Source: a phage. Taken from it: a stretch of DNA of 64,000 nt. Where the stretch lies: the sequence record OZ346212.1, one strand, 5' to 3'. Made by a program: the position numbers and the translations under genes. Positions 1,050 through 53,936 of the stretch are shown here, piece after piece (position 1 is the first letter of the stretch; each line of letters begins with the position of its first letter). A model generated the notes under the pieces. That model was not told the DNA's origin, made no database searches, and was given only the letters and a program-made list of their open reading frames with translations.

Positions 1050-2767
1050 TGGCAACAGCTGTTTTTAAACCTTACCGTGATTACTCTACAATGGCTGCAC
1101 GGTTTCATTACCGAACAGTTCAGGATACTGCCGTTCCTGGTAGGGATTATGATCATGTTGAGGGCGATGTAACTATCCCAGTTGGGGCAACCAGTATTGA
1201 GATCCCCGTGGAAATTGTTGACAAATTACCCAACAGGTTGCCAAGAAGCTTCTTTATGGAGTTTTCATCAAAATCTCAAGGGGTGATGATTGGAACACAA
1301 AGGGCGAAATGTACAATAGTTTCAGATGAGAATCTTGACAGGATATCTTGGGATACTGTTGAGGAGAGAATGTTTCACCCAAGATATTGGGTTACAACCA
1401 CTCAGCAGACTGAAAGTACCTGTATTGTTGCAGATAACAACTGTTGTATTAACCGTTTAGTGTCAAGAACATATGGAGGTATGGCTGGGTGCATTTGGGA
1501 AACAGTTGACAAGTATGACCATTTCGGTATTGGGTTTGATGATCACTATGAGATGAGAAACACCAAGCTTTGGTTCAGAATGTCAATAACCAACGCCAGC
1601 AACTTCTCCACTCCTGAAAAGATGATTATGACTGTAGACCTTGTTGATGGCACAATCATCTATGTTCCTTTAGCTCAATATGCTGTCAGCATCTCAGAGG
1701 ATAAGAATGTTGCAGAAATTCATATTGATTTTGAGGACTGCGTCGGGATGGACCAGAACAACAACATGATGGGTGTTGATCCTCGGCAGGTGAGAAGGAT
1801 TTTAATACCGCTTATGCCTAAAGACTGGGTAAGTAATAGCACAGACCCGAGAACGGAAAATGTAAAGTGTGAGTTGCGCCTAGATCTGCTTCAGCCAGAC
1901 ACAGGCTGGAAAATGATGCAACTTAACAATATCCAGGTGAGAGAGCACGATGTTGGGATCTGCACCGCATATGACGATATGTGGAACGTGTCTCCTTTAA
2001 GGGTGTTGAACAATATCAAGCGTCTGGGCTATACCGGAACCATAAACCATTATGTTGGTATGAGTCATTATTATGACTACACATGGTCAGGAACCCAATG
2101 GTCTATAAACAGAACAGGAGCGCTAAACGCTGCAGCTTATAAATGGCATGATGATTTTATGTACAATGCCAAACGACATAACTTCGACGTTATGCAATCT
2201 GTAAGTTTTGAGCTTTTCAGCGATGCCTGCCCGTTGGAATGGACCCAAAGAGACTGGAACGATAACTACGCTAAAACAGGGTATACACCTTGTAGCTACC
2301 TCCTGTCTCCAACCATTGAAGAGGGTATGAATTTCCTTACTGCAGTATTTAAGAATTTTGCATCAGCCGCTATGAGAAACAACCTGCCAGTGATTATGCA
2401 GGTTGGTGAACCGTGGTGGTGGTACAATACCGATACTCGTAGACCTTGTATTTATGATTACCCTACAAAACAGGCGTTTTATGATGAGACAGGCGAGTAT
2501 GCATTAGATATTGGGACTATTGACGATCCTAAAACTGGCGGTGTTTACGATAAGTATGTAGCATTTTGTCGTGGTAAGCTTGGCGCTCGTATTGCGGCTA
2601 TTTCAAAGGCAATAAAGGCACACGCTGCATCAGCTCAGATGACAGCTCTGCTGTTTTCCCAACCATTATGGAAACCGAGCTTACGCAAAAGCTTAACCTT
2701 GCTGACCAATATAAAAAGGAAGCAGGTGCTCTTGATTTCTTCTGCACCGAGTGCTACGATTGGGTGA
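1049..2767 (+). CDS. putative tail fiber / baseplate-attached protein (572 aa)
   Basis: Large ORF translationally coupled to upstream gene; N-terminal stretch DYDHVEGDVTIPVGATSIEIPVEIVD resembles a Calx-beta-like beta-sandwich motif; position equivalent to fiber gene after baseplate genes. Confidence 0.65.
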   Translation: MATAVFKPYRDYSTMAARFHYRTVQDTAVPGRDYDHVEGDVTIPVGATSIEIPVEIVDKLPNRLPRSFFMEFSSKSQGVMIGTQRAKCTIVSDENLDRISWDTVEERMFHPRYWVTTTQQTESTCIVADNNCCINRLVSRTYGGMAGCIWETVDKYDHFGIGFDDHYEMRNTKLWFRMSITNASNFSTPEKMIMTVDLVDGTIIYVPLAQYAVSISEDKNVAEIHIDFEDCVGMDQNNNMMGVDPRQVRRILIPLMPKDWVSNSTDPRTENVKCELRLDLLQPDTGWKMMQLNNIQVREHDVGICTAYDDMWNVSPLRVLNNIKRLGYTGTINHYVGMSHYYDYTWSGTQWSINRTGALNAAAYKWHDDFMYNAKRHNFDVMQSVSFELFSDACPLEWTQRDWNDNYAKTGYTPCSYLLSPTIEEGMNFLTAVFKNFASAAMRNNLPVIMQVGEPWWWYNTDTRRPCIYDYPTKQAFYDETGEYALDIGTIDDPKTGGVYDKYVAFCRGKLGARIAAISKAIKAHAASAQMTALLFSQPLWKPSLRKSLTLLTNIKRKQVLLISSAPSATIG

Positions 2768-3120
2768 TGCAGGGAGGTATTGAAAAGGCAAAAGAGTCTG
2801 TAAACATACCTATCGTTAAGTTAGGTTGGCAACCGTCTGAAATACAATACCTTGCAGGGTTCGTTCCTAGTAAAGAGCTTGCTCCGGTATATGGCTACGA
2901 CCCAACCAGGAATTACCAAGAATTTTTATGGAGATGTATCTGCGGAAACATGGCAACCATAGAGTATAGATACCCTGAGGTAAAACAGTATGTGTGGGCA
3001 TACCCGCAAGTAATGTCTGACAGCATCACTGTTACAGCCAGAGATTCTACCGTGCTTCATATGGGGCAGGTTGCTCTGAAAGGGTATGTAGAAGATGTTG
3101 TCCCTCCAGACTTCTCATAA
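2767..3120 (+). CDS. hypothetical structural-module protein (118 aa; alternative start 2668 gives 150 aa)
   Basis: ATG at 2767 overlaps the TGA of upstream gene (TGATG); track ORF 2668..3120 would overlap upstream gene by 100 nt. Confidence 0.5.
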   Translation: MQGGIEKAKESVNIPIVKLGWQPSEIQYLAGFVPSKELAPVYGYDPTRNYQEFLWRCICGNMATIEYRYPEVKQYVWAYPQVMSDSITVTARDSTVLHMGQVALKGYVEDVVPPDFS

Positions 3121-3132
3121 TCAGGAGATAAA

Positions 3133-4173
3133 ATGTCAAAACCTAGTTTTCCATTAGAGATTTGGGCAGAGGAGGATCAGGTTCTGCCTAACACCCACAG
3201 ACAGAACAGGCTACGCCCGATCGATGATTTGTGGAGAAAAGGTTGGGATCTTGGTCAAAAGCCATCCTGTGAAGAACTTAACTATATTTTCAATATGCTC
3301 GGAACTTGGGCAAAATACATTGCTGACGAGCAGATCCCCGCTCAAGAAGGCCGTTATCTGGTACGTGATAATAACTTGAGCGATCTTTTGAACATCCCTG
3401 TTGCCCGTAGAAACCTTGGGATTATCACTAAGGAAGAGGCAGACGCCAGGTATGTAAAAGTTACAGGTGATACAATGACAGGCCCCTTGGGGTTGCAACG
3501 TATCAACTTTAAAGCTGCCGAGACAGATAAGGCTTGGATAGAGACAACTATTGGCCCAGATAAGACAACTCTCGACTTTGGGTTAAGTGATAATACCGGG
3601 TCGTTTGATGATGGTGGTACATCTACAGTGGATGCGTTTCGTTGGAGATTCCAGCCAACTCAGCCGGATATTAATCCAGAGTTCACTTTGATGTACCTTA
3701 ACGCGATCACGGCTAATCGTGCGCTGTTGAAAGTGGTAGGCAATGTTGAAGTTGTCGATAACATGAGGTGCAATAACCTTACTATCAGCAATACAGCAAC
3801 ATTCACCAACTGTAATGTGGCTAGTCAGTTGACGGCTGGGTCAGTATATGTTAATGGTGGTGCAAGTTGTGACAGTATGGTTGTAAGAAGCCAGCACTGT
3901 GTTGTCGGTAACAGAAATGTGGTGCGCTCCGTGAATGGAGTGACGGCTAACGGTAACGGTGATGTAACGATCACTATCCCGCAGACAGGTGTGCAAGACA
4001 TCAGAATCGGTGCAAGACTTGTGGACGGCGTTTCTGAATCTCCAATCCGCAACGGCTACGTTGTCACAGGCTGGCATTTCGGTGACAAAAAAGAGATGCG
4101 TGGTTCAACCTACTGGGCAGGACCCTTACAAAAACTTGTAAATGGTCAATGGATCACTGTTAATTATGCATAG
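3133..4173 (+). CDS. tail fiber / receptor-binding protein, paralog A (346 aa)
   Basis: SD AGGAGA upstream; N-terminus PLEIWAEEDQVL and C-terminus YWAGPLQKLVNGQWITVNYA shared with ORF 5186..6229, central region divergent; GDTMTGPL fiber-like motif. Confidence 0.8.
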   Translation: MSKPSFPLEIWAEEDQVLPNTHRQNRLRPIDDLWRKGWDLGQKPSCEELNYIFNMLGTWAKYIADEQIPAQEGRYLVRDNNLSDLLNIPVARRNLGIITKEEADARYVKVTGDTMTGPLGLQRINFKAAETDKAWIETTIGPDKTTLDFGLSDNTGSFDDGGTSTVDAFRWRFQPTQPDINPEFTLMYLNAITANRALLKVVGNVEVVDNMRCNNLTISNTATFTNCNVASQLTAGSVYVNGGASCDSMVVRSQHCVVGNRNVVRSVNGVTANGNGDVTITIPQTGVQDIRIGARLVDGVSESPIRNGYVVTGWHFGDKKEMRGSTYWAGPLQKLVNGQWITVNYA

Positions 4174-44773: not shown

Positions 44774-45099
44774 CAGAGATCATCATTTCAACTGCAGGGT
44801 ATGTATTCCTGACAATCATTGCACTGGCTATTTTGGTGACAGTGTATGGGTTTGTTATCCTTCCTATCCTTGAGACATTTAGTTTGTGTCGGTGTTGGAG
44901 AAAAGCTTACGGTCCACAACCATGGAAGGACTGGCCCCACCTGGTGCGCTTAGCGTTCTCTTATGCTTACGATCACTCCAGTAGTGCATGCATAACCGGA
45001 TACCACGCCCACAACTGGAGCTGGGAAGGGTTGAGGAAATGGAATGTTACAAAGACCATACCTCTGCGCATGTACAAACCTAAAAACAAAGACAACTGA
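44770..45099 (+). CDS. hypothetical membrane protein (109 aa)
   Basis: SD GGGGAGG; N-terminal hydrophobic helix IISTAGYVFLTIIALAILVTVYGFVILPIL. Confidence 0.6.
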   Translation: MTEIIISTAGYVFLTIIALAILVTVYGFVILPILETFSLCRCWRKAYGPQPWKDWPHLVRLAFSYAYDHSSSACITGYHAHNWSWEGLRKWNVTKTIPLRMYKPKNKDN

Positions 45100-45129
45100 T
45101 ACTTGAAAATTCCTGGCATATCAAGTATA

Positions 45130-45600
45130 AGGGGGATTTCTAAAATGGATTTCCTCCTTTTGATATTTCACCGGGCTGGATATTTTAAAATTCTTAGAAA
45201 ATCAGAAAATGGATCGAAAACTAAAATGGATTTTTCAGAGTAGGCGCGACAAGCTGAATAACTCATCCTATCGTTTGCACCATATTCCAGGCCACCATTA
45301 TAGATTTCCCACACATGCTAACCTCTCCCTACTAGAACTTCCTCCACTTACCCTTGACCTTCTATGGTAACAATCTAACCGCTATCTTGAAGTTGCGGTG
45401 CAGCTTTCCAGGTACTCGATCTACTTTTCATTTCAGGGCTTGGATTTTCTGAAAATTTTTCTCGATAAATTTCTCAGTACTCGATCTGTTTTTCGTTTTC
45501 TGAATCGGATTTTCTGGAAATCGTTCCGGCTCTCAACCTGAAATTTTTGGGGACGAAATCGATTTTTCGTTTTCAGAAATGGATTTTTAAAATTTCTATA
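45130..45600. repeat. AT-rich noncoding region with iteron-like short direct repeats
   Basis: AAATGGAT(T/C) x4, GTACTCGATCT x2, GGATTTTCTG x2, TTTCGTTTTC x2; no credible ORF. Confidence 0.6.
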
Positions 45601-45648
45601 TGGGAATATTTTAGTGGATACTGTTTTATAGGAAATTGTTACGGAGGG

Positions 45649-45666
45649 TAATTAGCATGCTAATTA
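45649..45666. promoter_or_regulatory. 18-bp perfect palindrome TAATTAGCATGCTAATTA (candidate protein-binding site)
   Basis: Perfectly self-complementary 18-mer in noncoding DNA. Confidence 0.5.
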
Positions 45667-45689
45667 AATTTATTAAATGCGAGGAGTTC

Positions 45690-45960
45690 TCATTTAGAAT
45701 TTTGAATGATAATCATTCTCGTTTGCAGAATAACGGGCAGGCCCGGTGATTGTCTCCCGGCCCCTGTTGCCCCGGCTTGTTATTATAGTATCACACAGGA
45801 CAAAGAAAGCAAGGACTTTTTGCATAAATTTTTAAATGATAATGATAACCGTTCTCATTTTATGCAGCGCCCATCCCCGGTGGTTGTCTCCCCCGTCACC
45901 GGTGCCTGCCGTCCTTTCGATATGTATATTGTGCCACCTGGCGGGGCCGCTGTCAACACT
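45690..45960. repeat. two tandem structured noncoding repeats with Fur-box-like head (ATGATAAT...) and conserved core CCCGGTG(A/G)TTGTCTCCC
   Basis: Copy 1 about 45692..45790, copy 2 about 45838..45960; track ORF 45706..46062 spans them but looks noncoding. Confidence 0.5.
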
Positions 45961-46120
45961 TTTCAAAAAATTTTTCTAACCTGGTGCGCTAACCGTTGCA
46001 ACCTGGCGGGGCCAGCCTGGCAGGACCTAACTGACCAGGTAGGGGAGAATGAAGGCTTGTAAACCTGGTGGGCCTATGCTACAGGATAGGTAACAATTGA
46101 AGAGGAGGTACAAAAATGAT

Positions 46121-46231
46121 ATGATCCCCCTGGAAAATGTAGCTATTAATGACTCTGAGGCTATCGCCCTGGTTGAAAAGGCTATGGCGGGAGCGTTGGA
46201 ACATAAAGAAGAGTACGAAAATGGTGGTTAA
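46121..46231 (+). CDS. hypothetical small protein (36 aa), not in ORF track
   Basis: ATG preceded by strong SD GAGGAGG at 46102; ends in TAA inside motif GGTTAACCTGGCGGGG. Confidence 0.4.
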   Translation: MIPLENVAINDSEAIALVEKAMAGALEHKEEYENGG

Positions 46232-46283
46232 CCTGGCGGGGGCGGCAGGTGGATTCTATCATAAAAATAATTTAAAATAGTAG

Positions 46284-46311
46284 TTGACAACAAGGTTAAT
46301 CATGGTATTAT
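46284..46311 (+). promoter_or_regulatory. sigma70-like promoter (TTGACA-N16-TATTAT)
   Basis: Hexamers at 46284 and 46306. Confidence 0.6.
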
Positions 46312-46361
46312 TACCCTACAAGGTGAACAACACCGCACTAACCAGTAAAGAGGATAAATTT

Positions 46362-46559
46362 ATGAACGCATACGGGATCAAAGTACGTCGCAACACTCGC
46401 CAGGTGGTCACCAATCAAGTGATTTGCCGGGTGGATGTAACCATCAACAACGGGCAAGGCCTTTATAAATTTCGTCGCGGTCATAGCTATACCCTGCAAC
46501 AGCTTAATCGTTGCGCCCTGACAAAAGGTCAGATCAACCACTGGTTTAATAAAAAATAA
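46362..46559 (+). CDS. hypothetical small basic protein (65 aa)
   Basis: ATG 46362 with SD AAAGAGGA; track start 46284 lies in the promoter. Confidence 0.55.
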   Translation: MNAYGIKVRRNTRQVVTNQVICRVDVTINNGQGLYKFRRGHSYTLQQLNRCALTKGQINHWFNKK

Positions 46560-47037: not shown

Positions 47038-47088
47038 AAGCACATAAACGGGAAAACTTCCCAGAACACACAAAAGGAGAAAAACACC

Positions 47089-47430
47089 ATGACTACTATG
47101 ACCGCCTCAGAAAAAGCTATGCAGATCGCTGAACTGAAAAAACAGATCGCAGACCTTGAGAATAAGATCGATAACTTTGAAATCGACGAGGACAAGTACG
47201 ACGAAAACTATGATGAATGGTTAGACGAGATCTACGGCGAAATTATGATCGGAAACATTTCTTTTCTTCCGTCGCGTATCCTCAAGGAGCTAGATCCTAT
47301 CGCTTACCGCTGCGGATTTAGCGACTACATCGACAGCCTGGATATTGAGGACGATGAAGAATACCAGGAATTACAGACAGAGTTAGAAGAAGCAAAAGAA
47401 GAGCTTGCGGAGCTGGAAGAAAACGAGTAA
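47089..47430 (+). CDS. hypothetical acidic coiled-coil protein (113 aa)
   Basis: SD AAAGGAGA; leader hairpin GGGAA-aac-TTCCC at 47050. Confidence 0.65.
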   Translation: MTTMTASEKAMQIAELKKQIADLENKIDNFEIDEDKYDENYDEWLDEIYGEIMIGNISFLPSRILKELDPIAYRCGFSDYIDSLDIEDDEEYQELQTELEEAKEELAELEENE

Positions 47431-51770: not shown

Positions 51771-52055
51771 ATGGCTATTGTTACCGCTGGCGATGTAGTA
51801 GAAATGGAAGCAAAATACTTAAAAGCGGGTATGCATATCCTACGCAACGATCTTGAACTGGTCCTGACAATGGTTGACTATAACCCAGGGCAAGATTATC
51901 CAAGTGTTGACTACTTTTTTGAGTATGTTGATGAAGAGTTGAAAGAGGATGAGGCCTATTGCGGTGAGTTCTGCAACTTCTTTTGTCCTGATGAGGTTGT
52001 AAAGGTTATCTATCAACCTGGCGTAGCTTTCCCGCTGCACGCTATCAATAAATAA
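51771..52055 (+). CDS. hypothetical acidic protein (94 aa)
   Basis: RBS context ATAGGAGTTAAAACCATGGC. Confidence 0.6.
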   Translation: MAIVTAGDVVEMEAKYLKAGMHILRNDLELVLTMVDYNPGQDYPSVDYFFEYVDEELKEDEAYCGEFCNFFCPDEVVKVIYQPGVAFPLHAINK

Positions 52056-52060
52056 ACCTG

Positions 52061-52084
52061 GCGGGGCCGAAAAGGCCCCCGCCT
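52061..52084 (+). terminator. GC-rich hairpin (terminator-like, weak U-tract)
   Basis: GGCGGGGCC-gaaaa-GGCCCCCGCC directly after the stop codon. Confidence 0.45.
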
Positions 52085-52944: not shown

Positions 52945-53259
52945 AAGCACATAGCCGCCAGATCTCAGAATTTACGTACGCTCACCAGTCTATAGCCTGC
53001 TAAGTATTTATTCCAACCATAGAATAACGGAATAGTCAATACCTGCATAAAATAATTATTCGTGTAAACTGCATAACATAAATCGGCTAGGATGTCAACA
53101 TTTTTCGTAAACAGCTCGAAATTATAACGGTGAGTTATAATAAACAGAGAAATCTTTAGTCGTCTAATGTTTACTGTACATTACTATACTGACTGGAATC
53201 ATTAGATGACTAAGAGAAAGATAAGAAATCATTAACAATGCAATTGTTTTATTCGTAAC

Positions 53260-53560
53260 AATAAGGCAACTATGCAAACGGATGGCATGGCGCGACGGAG
53301 TCGCGACATAATATAAAAGCAGTAACCATCACCCCCGTGATAGTTTGTCTGCAAACTATTAATCAGATCATAGTTGCCTTGTATTTAGTTAATCATGACA
53401 TAACAAGCAAGGCAACTATAGATCTGCTAATAGTTGCCCTGCTTTTATATTATGTCATAGATTATTAGCCTGTTAATTGTTAGTCAGTCAAATCAACAAC
53501 GTTATCATTTCAGTCTTTATTGTTGTTGATCGTTATTGTTATCATGCAAACGAATGGCAT
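53260..53560. repeat. repeat cluster in convergent intergenic region
   Basis: AAGGCAACTAT in forward (53262, 53411) and inverted (53372, 53432) orientation; hairpin TAGTTTG-tctg-CAAACTA; direct repeat TGCAAACG(G/A)ATGGCATGGC at 53273 and 53541. Confidence 0.6.
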
Positions 53561-53936
53561 GGCTTATCATTTTTGAGTAAACAATCTATACGTGAACAGT
53601 GAGGCAAGTTAGCAGCCGATAGATTAGATATTAACCTGCAGACTTCTGACCGTCTAGACGTCTAAACGCCCACACAACAAGGATTATACATACAATACTG
53701 AATGTAAACAGGGCCGCAAAAATGCTACCATACCACAGATTGTAAATTTTTCATGCAGCACTTGACAAAGAGGAGAACTTAATTTTATCAGGATAGGCAA
53801 GAATGTCAAGGCATGACTGCTCACTAAACAAGCAAACAGTCATGTGTGGGAGGTAAGTGATTGTGGTGGTAGGAAATTTAGTTGAAAGATGTGTTATAGG
53901 TGCTTCCAGCACTTTAGCCGGGCAGCTAATTGTGTG

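Follow-up and report, generated by a model that had tools for sequence, protein, structure and literature searches.

The stretch of DNA analysed here (the window) comprises 64,000 nucleotides of sequence record OZ346212.1 and belongs to a Vequintavirus (rV5-like phage) showing 98.5% identity to Escherichia phage EdH4. About 110 further Vequintavirus genomes of roughly 137 kb each are 90-97% identical to the region considered in the following, which is surrounded by small plus-strand early genes, most of them preceded by a near-consensus sigma70 promoter. Within this region, ~1.1 kb are devoid of a convincing gene, from a gene end at 45099 to a promoter at 46284. GenBank annotations of this gap consist of differing and mutually inconsistent “hypothetical proteins”, and the rV5 genome paper shows a “non-coding” box on its map without describing the elements themselves. 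A gene-free early-region gap of ~1 kb is conserved in every genus examined, and among 11 Vequintavirus genomes positions 45410-45960 are almost invariant while the flanks are variable. Two repeats of ~135 nt in this gap are two copies of one module, each consisting of Fur-type boxes, a GC-rich hairpin and a minus-strand promoter (Table 1). We consider it highly probable that they represent a conserved non-coding regulatory module, in which the boxes would serve as putative operators of the host regulator Fur.

The distance between the two repeat copies is 130-136 nt. Repeat comparison showed 73% identity between 45692-45724 and 45828-45860, 92% between AATGATAATCAT (45705) and AATGATAATGAT (45835), and 94% for the core CCCGGTG(A/G)TTGTCTCCC (45742-45758 versus 45876-45892). 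An initial annotation of the window had described two tandem repeats sharing a GC-rich core, which are indeed present with small coordinate shifts, and had regarded the long open reading frame (ORF) in this place as spurious. The latter is supported by the relatives: the 118-aa ORF at 45706-46062 has 118 codons from the homologous ATG in the window, and the corresponding frame has 40, 53, 92, 92, 95, 95, 95, 109 and 132 codons in nine close relatives, with only 40 codons in the 98.5%-identical EdH4. Furthermore, the two core copies are mutually out of frame owing to their 134-nt spacing, and conservation is equal at all codon positions in the region, exceeding that of the neighbouring genes. 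The ORF is thus spurious.

Table 1. Coordinates of the features discussed in the text. Positions refer to the window unless another locus is named; arrows indicate minus-strand direction.
Feature	Position	Strand	Description
Further direct repeats	45098-45260		81-nt units with CTAAAATGGATTT
Iteron-like direct repeats, three	45402-45590		65-74-nt period, core CTCGATCTnTTTTTCnTTT (CTCGATCTnTTTTTC) ... GGATTTTCTG
Distal Fur-type box	45676-45694		AATGCGAGGAGTTCTCATT; 12/14 arm positions; degenerate, 29 bp upstream of the proximal box
Weak candidate plus-strand promoter	45702-45731	+	TTGAAT-N18-CAGAAT, proximal box fills the spacer; 8/12, below scan threshold
Proximal Fur-type box, unit 1	45705-45723		AATGATAATCATTCTCGTT; 7-1-7 core TGATAAT-C-ATTCTCG at 45707-45721
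Hairpin H1	45729-45784	-	AATAAC/GTTATT outer, GGGCA/TGCCC, CCGG/CCGG inner; core GGTGATTGTCTCC at 45745-45757
Unit-1 minus-strand promoter	45812->45785	-	TTGCTT (45812->45807), 16-nt spacer, extended -10 TGaTACTAT (45793->45785)
Unit-2 Fur-type site	45835-45859		two overlapping boxes, 45835-45853 and 45841-45859, 6-bp offset
Hairpin H2	45866-45909	-	core GGTGGTTGTCTCC at 45879-45891; inner stem CCGGTG/CACCGG
Unit-2 minus-strand sigma70 promoter	45956->45928	-	TTGACA-N17-(TGg)CACAAT, 10/12 plus TG
Good AACCTGGCGGGGCC copies	45935, 46000, 46230, 52055		1, 0, 1 and 0 mismatches, respectively
Weak AACCTGGCGGGGCC copies	46014, 46062, 52015		3 mismatches each
Variable CCWGG-rich segment	45979-46095		AACCTGGCGGGGCC copies 46000-46013, 46014-46027 and 46062-46075; no folding signal
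AACCTGGCGGGGCC copy	46230-46243	+	overlaps the stop of the small ORF 46121-46231; weak hairpin just upstream of promoter 46284-46311
Early promoter	46284-46311		downstream of the AACCTGGCGGGGCC copy at 46230
AACCTGGCGGGGCC copy with strong hairpin	52055-52083	+	GGCGGGGCC-gaaaa-GGCCCCCGCC; -19.7 kcal/mol, z -3.2
Element X	L007 (CR8) 2650-2723; L006 (phAPEC8) 2697-2765; L133 (W70) 2648-2722

Fur-type palindromes (AATGAnAAnnnTTCTCATT) were found at 45676, 45705 and 45835/45841 and nowhere else in the 64-kb window. Scored against the classical Fur box GATAATGATAATCATTATC, the sites 45702-45720 (TTGAATGATAATCATTCTC) and 45838-45856 (GATAATGATAACCGTTCTC) match at 15/19 and 16/19 positions, respectively, and known Fur sites match this 19-bp consensus at about 11-16/19. 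These two are the only sites in the window with four or fewer mismatches; dinucleotide shuffles contained 0.08 such sites on average, and two of them in 0/60 cases. Each repeat head forms a 19-bp dyad, AATGAnAA-nnn-TTCTCATT, and the boxes of the window fit the 7-1-7 minimal dimer unit TGATAATnATTATCA, from which the consensus of the relatives, TGAGAAT-n-ATTCTCA, differs by one symmetric change per half-site. Measured from an invariant GAAT, box starts lie at -23, -52, -81 and -110, an exact 29-bp phasing present in at least 20 genomes, and the distance between distal and proximal box is identical in all relatives. The number of boxes per genome ranges from one to five. As in unit 2, sites overlapping with a 6-bp offset also occur in relatives at -87/-81 and -29/-23 (phAPEC8) and at -58/-52 (CB7). 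Both the 7-1-7 inverted-repeat model and the 6-bp overlapping-site architecture have been described for Fur sites of Escherichia coli (PMC2189734). The half-sites of a box diverge independently and without compensation, suggesting that the box behaves as a protein operator and not as an RNA stem. Just upstream of the distal box, at 45650-45667, lies a perfect 18-bp palindrome (TAATTAGCATGCTAATTA), which the genus conserves apart from single-base variants.

The proximal box of unit 1 is one base away from AATGATAATCATTCTCATT, which forms the proximal box of phAPEC8, CB7, K45, Mydo, ZCKP1 and SKA64. A scan for exact AATGATAATCATTCTCATT matches in one genome per bacterial species retrieved at least 120 bacterial genomes from Proteobacteria, Firmicutes, Cyanobacteria, Chloroflexi and Actinobacteria, compared to ~4 matches expected by chance according to a composition estimate made by hand, or at most ~50 if all genomes were AT-rich. 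Among the matches listed, 112/120 lie outside long ORFs, and the 83 adjoining ORFs scanned include 13 TonB-dependent receptors, seven Fe3+-type solute-binding proteins, four ZnuA-family proteins, three Peripla_BP_2 (siderophore-type periplasmic binding) proteins, two FUR proteins, an IucA/IucC synthetase and two Lys/Orn oxygenases. By sequence, nothing distinguishes the exact proximal box of the relatives from genuine Fur operators. The box consensus is identical across genera whose other non-coding DNA is unalignable, which argues for a conserved host factor as the binder. We regard binding of Fur to these boxes as probable. The initial annotation had likened the repeat heads to the Fur box by eye (15 of 17 positions for copy 1); the uniqueness of the sites and, in common with the Fur boxes of Enterobacterales and other bacteria, the scores given above, the 7-1-7 fit, the 6-bp overlap and the iron-uptake neighbours of AATGATAATCATTCTCATT place this reading on firmer ground.

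Directly after the proximal box, the stretch GAAT-RRC-nn-GCA-nnnnn-GGTG-n-TTGTCT is almost invariant in sequence and register across 27 modules, and the hairpin core GGTGnTTGTCTCC is near-invariant. The variable half following this stretch always offers complementary runs, and every module can form a hairpin, the stems of which differ by class. The class of H2 is also found in ChuuTotoro, in ABPH49 and at the second locus of CR3-like genomes. Folding of H1 gave -22.0 kcal/mol (z -2.3) for the minus and -19.6 kcal/mol (z -0.8) for the plus strand; for H2, the values were -20.1 kcal/mol (z -2.6) and -16.7 kcal/mol (z -1.1), respectively. The repeats had initially been called “structured”, with covariation across related phages named as a check. 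Minus-strand folding is somewhat better than that of shuffled sequences, whereas plus-strand folding is not, and hairpins can form in every module, but clean compensatory changes are few. The claim of structure is thus moderately supported, and the strongest constraint lies on the core sequence. In four modules (L270, L273, L274 and L275), GAAT is kept in the form CTGAAT without an upstream box or -35 hexamer, which indicates that it belongs to the hairpin unit, as the ..AUUC tail of the minus strand, and not to a plus-strand -10 hexamer.

The best promoters of the module are located on the minus strand and point into the hairpins, which speaks against reading the repeats simply as structured plus-strand RNAs with the Fur box at their start. 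The unit-2 promoter possesses an A/T-rich upstream tract (45957-45978) and a predicted start at ~45921, and over 20 nt it shares 95% identity with its counterpart in phage W70. The unit-1 start is predicted at ~45778, and both units have their predicted minus-strand start at the hairpin foot (that of H1 in unit 1). A minus-strand promoter match with its -10 hexamer ending 50-56 nt from the GAAT anchor was detected in 18/27 modules scanned. Equivalents of the outer promoter are found in phAPEC8 (TTGACA-17-TATACT, 11/12; 2816->2788) and CR8 (TTGACG-17-CATAAT, 10/12; 2773->2745), and relatives carry a second minus-strand promoter directly beside the hairpin, such as TTGCAA-N17-TATATT in CR8 (2611->2583). 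The spacer of the outer promoter is a GC hairpin in relatives, where it also resembles the terminator of an adjacent minus-strand gene. In the window, that gene and the spacer hairpin are absent although the outer-promoter hexamers are retained, which argues that promoter function is what is conserved.

At least six genera of the Vequintavirinae and Stephanstirmvirinae carry the module in the same genomic position. Boxes stand at this position in Phapecoctavirus (phAPEC8, ZCKP1, SKA64), Certrevirus (CR3, CR8, CB7, PhiTE, POP18) and Mydovirus (Mydo, K45PH128C2), as well as in a Salmonella phage, PVP-SE1, Serratia phages, the Acinetobacter-labelled ABPH49 and W70. The module head shows 70-87% DNA identity to Phapecoctavirus, Mydovirus, Certrevirus, Salmonella and Serratia phages. 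In IMG/VR, the degenerate pattern GAATRRCNNGCANNNNNGGTGNTTGTCT matched 14 contigs only, all of 84-153 kb, and is thus specific to a narrow set of large phage contigs; those inspected show the box and hairpin architecture of the named rV5-like phages. The 16-mer AATGATAATCATTCTC was discarded as a query for the same database, as it returned mostly unrelated contigs. The CR3-like genomes L270, L275 and L273 (149-153 kb) contain a second cassette elsewhere in the genome (~300-480 in L270). Located immediately behind the terminator of a minus-strand gene, it comprises a Fur-type box, a hairpin of the copy-2 class and a minus-strand promoter (TTGACT-N18-TATTCT). Moreover, 16 or 17 records named “Campylobacter phage” (host Campylobacter jejuni) match the E. 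coli Vequintavirus locus described here at 93-97% identity, which suggests mislabelled or contaminating phages in that submission series.

On this basis, the following mechanism can be proposed. Read on the minus strand, the cassette would lead from a sigma70 promoter through a GC-rich hairpin of ~45-55 nt with a nearly invariant 3' half (GAGACAAnCACC...TGCCCGyyATTC) to one to five Fur operators, which begin 4-5 nt past the hairpin and are 29 bp apart. Host RNA polymerase would produce a short hairpin RNA from each minus-strand promoter, starting near 45921 and 45778, for which the hairpin and the AUUCUG tail behind it would be a weak termination point. Leftward read-through would be blocked by iron-loaded Fur sitting directly beyond this point; without this block, a read-through RNA of ~190 nt could extend from 45921 to H1, and folding of the corresponding 198-nt minus-strand stretch gave z -2.8. 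Within unit 1, and likewise in most relatives, Fur could additionally repress a weak convergent TTGAAT-N18-cAGAAT promoter making an antisense RNA. As an outcome, the early non-coding RNA output would be coupled to the iron status of the host. While the anatomy of the module, its conservation and the operator character of the boxes are evident from the sequence, we infer that the locus is transcribed and bound by Fur, and likewise which way regulation runs and what the core acts on; the full mechanism, with minus-strand hairpin RNAs and either Fur-gated extension or an antisense partner, is a tentative proposal, to which we give somewhat less than an even chance.

Several observations weigh against this mechanism and the Fur reading on which it builds. 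The commonest phage half-site is TGAGAAT, with a G where the Fur heptamer has a T, and separate sites spaced by 29 bp differ from the usual Fur arrangement. Unlike other Fur boxes, these putative operators reside in a strictly lytic phage, follow a hairpin and adjoin no protein-coding gene. The Fur-type site overlaps only the weak plus-strand candidate promoter, whereas relative to the strong minus-strand promoters the boxes are located downstream of the hairpin, and Fur operators are not usually placed behind a terminator. The terminator itself is questionable, as the hairpin tail yyAUUCwG is a poor U-tract with three to five U per 8 nt and the scan tool called no minus-strand terminator after the hairpins. 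The unit-1 minus-strand promoter matches at only 7/12 positions plus the extended -10. With regard to RNA structure, the minus strand is more stable in 12/21 modules with a mean difference of -0.5 kcal/mol; neither strand is therefore favoured across genera, and folding energy was dropped as a means of assigning the strand. G-U versus A-C asymmetries conflict between inner and outer stems, and there is little true covariation, since the 5' half in plus-strand sense is nearly invariant and the other half class-dependent. Finally, literature searches retrieved no transcript, Fur-binding or iron-response data for these phages and no transcriptome study of the locus.

The best-surviving alternative, which we nevertheless regard as unlikely, is a Fur-repressed small RNA (sRNA) encoded on the plus strand. 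Here, TTGAAT-N18-CAGAAT would fire at low iron and start transcription at ~45738-45739 near the invariant GCA, GGUGAUUGUCUCC near the 5' end would serve as a seed for ribosome-binding sites, and the RNA would end at the U-rich CUUGUUAUUAU after the hairpin. An operator between -35-like and -10-like hexamers corresponds to the classical geometry of Fur repression, and TTGAAT and nAGAAT are each present in 17/27 modules. The conserved half of the hairpin is the 5' half in plus sense, as in many sRNA seeds, and the core is complementary to the Shine-Dalgarno-like ribosome-binding site GGAGAAAAACACCatg (47076-47088) of the gene at 47089-47430, pairing at 11/13 positions with the cores of the window and at 12/13 with the core variant GGTGTTTGTCTCC. 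Conserved in Gotham and EdH4, this site may be a true target or may pair by chance; the number of off-site core matches with at most two mismatches, three, is near chance (1.4 expected). However, the promoter matches the consensus at 8/12 positions, and in 10/27 modules the -10-like hexamer has T or G at the critical second position in place of the key A, so that a plus-strand promoter is present at best in a subset of modules. Window copy 2 has no usable -10 hexamer, and the four modules named above keep GAAT and the hairpin without box and -35. In addition, the AAT of the putative -10 is part of the stem foot, which would hence lie outside such an RNA, and plus-strand folding is no better than that of shuffles.

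A replication origin appears slightly less likely again. In this scenario, the boxes would be iterons bound by a phage initiator or by co-opted Fur, the AT-rich stretch 45100-45660 would unwind, and the minus-strand promoters would prime or activate replication, comparable to the R-loop origins of T4 and the transcriptional activation of lambda ori. The repeats on the AT-rich side speak most strongly for this scenario: the three iteron-like repeats are nearly invariant in 11 Vequintavirus genomes, the family of 81-nt repeats is almost invariant within the genus, and repeats related to the former (GGTCTCGATCG..TTTTTC) occupy the same place in CR8, CB7, ChuuTotoro and ABPH49. The large conserved gene-free gap fits this idea, as do the 55-70% A+T of 45100-45700, a generic feature as are iterons, and the strong promoters aiming into the AT-rich side. 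Lambda ori contains four dyad-symmetric iterons, which the phage boxes recall as tandem 19-bp dyads of regular spacing with an AT-rich neighbour and close to promoters. In contrast to these, box number varies from one to five between genera, and no initiator gene is linked to the module. The box equals the host Fur operator, for which an initiator iteron would have no reason, and the second cassette of CR3-like genomes combines box, hairpin and promoter without the repeats. Furthermore, there is no turn of GC skew at the locus, where the skew tracks the direction of transcription; no DnaA box was found in 45000-46400, GATC sites are less frequent there than the window average, and resemblance to the oriC 13-mers does not exceed chance. 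For rV5, the replication origin is not defined, and the same conclusion was drawn that skew follows transcription (PMC3606486).

We consider it improbable that the boxes are operators of a dimeric regulator encoded by the phage, their likeness to Fur sites being a coincidental AT-rich dyad symmetry. The consensus half-site TGAGAAT instead of TGATAAT and the 29-bp phasing, which is more typical of dedicated operator arrays, are in line with this idea, and a small minus-strand gene adjoins the locus in relatives. This gene (L006 2819-3085, L008 2776-3057 and W70_21 in L133) is located upstream of the outer promoter, and its product (..GWQGGTVHQVA.., N-terminus ..LGWQGGTVHQVA..) corresponds to phrog_19316/phrog_33408. 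It shows no Pfam domain and has no homolog in the window, where the boxes are kept, and was therefore rejected as the box binder. Moreover, the box consensus stays the same between genera despite strong divergence of their proteins, the proximal box in its exact form is widespread in bacterial Fur regulons, and overlapping sites with a 6-bp offset are a hallmark of Fur.

Two further explanations carry still less weight. According to the first, which is very improbable, the box arrays would be a decoy that titrates Fur and thereby derepresses host iron uptake for the benefit of iron-dependent phage enzymes, without any role in cis. Phage DNA is present in many copies late in infection, and each genome offers several high-quality Fur-type sites; however, some genera have a single box only, and the offsets between box, hairpin and promoter are fixed to the base pair in at least 20 genomes, indicating a function in cis. 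The second, that decayed coding sequence or junk, in the form of the 118-aa ORF or old gene remnants, explains the repeats, can be dismissed almost entirely. Several GenBank records do annotate hypothetical proteins over parts of the region, but these annotations disagree, and frame lengths, the out-of-frame core copies and the conservation at all positions described above contradict it.

In the relatives, a second element of ~75 nt, here termed element X, is located between the hairpin and the outer minus-strand promoter. It is near-invariant and consists of CTACCGGCGATCCACCTTCC, a variable hairpin and GGTAyGTTAGCCCCGCCTTTTCGCCGTGGGGTGGCG. Element X occurs once each in 225 phage records, mostly unannotated; among the matches listed (40/225), nearly all records are 141-155 kb in size and none is a Vequintavirus of ~137 kb. 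A search with nhmmer did not find element X in the window, and Vequintavirus carries the second box and hairpin copy in its place. The central hairpin of the element co-varies, and its 3' part could form a pseudoknot with CCCC/GGGG crossing CGCC/GGCG. RNAalifold yielded no decisive strand or structure on either strand. Element X has no match in Rfam.

A further family of repeats in the region is defined by the motif AACCTGGCGGGGCC, for which we detected 10 matches with at most three mismatches in the window versus 2.3 expected, a number reached in 0/100 shuffles. The four recurrences in this region and the hairpin after a stop codon at 52056, which had been noted initially, are present with small coordinate shifts. 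However, the copies differ in their properties: those at 45935, 46000 and 46062 fold like shuffled sequence (z +1.0, -0.3 and 0.0), the copy at 46230 is marginal (z -1.8), and the hairpin at 52055, directly after a TAA stop and without a U-tract, is the sole strong one. The first copy (45935-45948), reverse-complemented, forms the GC-rich spacer of the unit-2 minus-strand promoter. We conclude that AACCTGGCGGGGCC is a family of GC-rich cassette pieces and not a single functional site or class.

Three of these copies lie in the variable CCWGG-rich segment, which is partly or wholly deleted in 5/10 close relatives (Gotham, slur12, Mangalyan, phita32 and naswa) and is thus dispensable. Nine CCWGG (Dcm/EcoRII) sites are found in 45937-46232 compared to ~1 per 525 bp window-wide; counted per 500-bp bin, 46000-46500 contains eight and all other bins at most three. 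The deletions in close relatives end at or near CCWGG sites. In part, the segment resembles the central hairpin of the W70 element X (CAACCTGGCGG), and it may be a remnant of element X. Further downstream, the small ORF at 46116-46231 (MKGNMIPLENV...YENGG in relatives) carries a 7-nt deletion right after the start codon in the window, and 2-nt deletions lead to early stops in slur12, phita32, EI-SP-GF and ECP32. This gene is probably either in decay or non-essential. The closest analogy for the AACCTGGCGGGGCC family may be the promoter-early stem-loops (PeSL) of T4-type phages, by which small early genes are flanked and become shuffled. Like PeSL cassettes, AACCTGGCGGGGCC provides a GC-rich stem-loop or half-stem beside sigma70 early promoters between small early genes and sits in an indel-prone segment; unlike them, it has only about five good copies in 64 kb, only one of which forms a strong hairpin and one of which lies inside a promoter spacer, and evidence of recombination junctions is confined to the deletions in close relatives.

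Other identities of the region were rejected or are considered unlikely. A comparison with 5,426 E. coli genomes revealed no meaningful similarity, the sole match being 26 nt long (E=5), and host-derived DNA was accordingly rejected. Rfam produced no match in the window at gathering score, in 44900-46400 at E values up to 10, or in six related loci, arguing against a known RNA family. ARAGORN found no tRNA or tmRNA in the window, the L004 locus or five other loci, and a tRNA or tRNA remnant is accordingly regarded as an annotation artefact; in the Klebsiella phage L004 (OY978796.1), tRNA-Met/Ile/Lys are annotated over the box, hairpin and element X at 2511-3206 and are probably misplaced. Some records start near the element, but record start positions are arbitrary, and a genome terminus or direct terminal repeat is considered unlikely; PhiTE and PVP-SE1 were reported to be circularly permuted (PMC3475682), contrary to this idea. 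Within the window, ~53000-53750 is also gene-poor, without an ORF of at least 50 aa, and adjoins a switch in GC skew and gene orientation at ~54 kb. The box-like matches at 53491 and 53553 have a single matching arm each and were rejected as half-sites.

Non-coding repeats have been described in this phage group before: pseudo-ToxI of the rV5-like phage PhiTE is a non-coding RNA with 36-nt near-identical repeats mimicking an antitoxin (Blower et al. 2012, PMC3475682). It resembles the module as a repetitive non-coding RNA locus, but its repeats mimic an antitoxin and lack Fur boxes, and as it lies at a different locus we rejected it as the identity of the module. With regard to promoter arrangement, the predicted starts of unit 1 (~45738 plus, ~45778 minus) are ~40 bp apart with the operator on one side, which is reminiscent of convergent-promoter switches. 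Coliphages 186 and P2 use such face-to-face promoters with transcriptional interference. Theirs, however, are lysis/lysogeny switches with phage repressors, whereas the module belongs to a lytic phage, has one very weak promoter and no repressor gene.

It is mainly in temperate phages that transcription factors of the host are known to relay environmental cues to phage decisions. Fur control is established for the stx1 promoter of Shiga-toxin prophages and for the host sRNA RyhB. The module would share with stx1 and ryhB a mobile, phage-borne or small-RNA promoter under host Fur with expression linked to iron. It differs from both, as stx1 is cargo of temperate phages and ryhB a host gene, whereas the module resides in the early region of virulent phages from two subfamilies and its regulated product appears to be a short hairpin RNA or an antisense partner. 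Full-text literature searches yielded no description of Fur operators for Vequintavirus or for other virulent members of this phage group. While Fur boxes themselves are well known, the new aspect is thus that lytic phages would have recruited a putative array of host Fur operators into a conserved non-coding module. The analysis also exposes element X as a second unannotated element in 225 related phage genomes, in addition to a compact module of ~135 bp (boxes, hairpin and promoter) that is currently hidden under inconsistent “hypothetical proteins”.

More speculatively than the mechanism itself, the strictly lytic Vequintavirinae and Stephanstirmvirinae may use Fur as an input to their early programme, with operator arrays gating a pair of tiny hairpin RNAs or their antisense RNAs, whose invariant 13-nt core acts on a conserved target in host or phage. 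The array would then be a sign that a lytic phage senses iron, something so far not reported for this group of phages, and, if true, the course of infection would depend on the iron status of the host. Many phages of the rV5 type are being developed against E. coli, Klebsiella, Salmonella and Cronobacter for use in therapy and biocontrol. Since iron is scarce in the gut and in infected tissue, such sensing could affect the performance of these phages in vivo.

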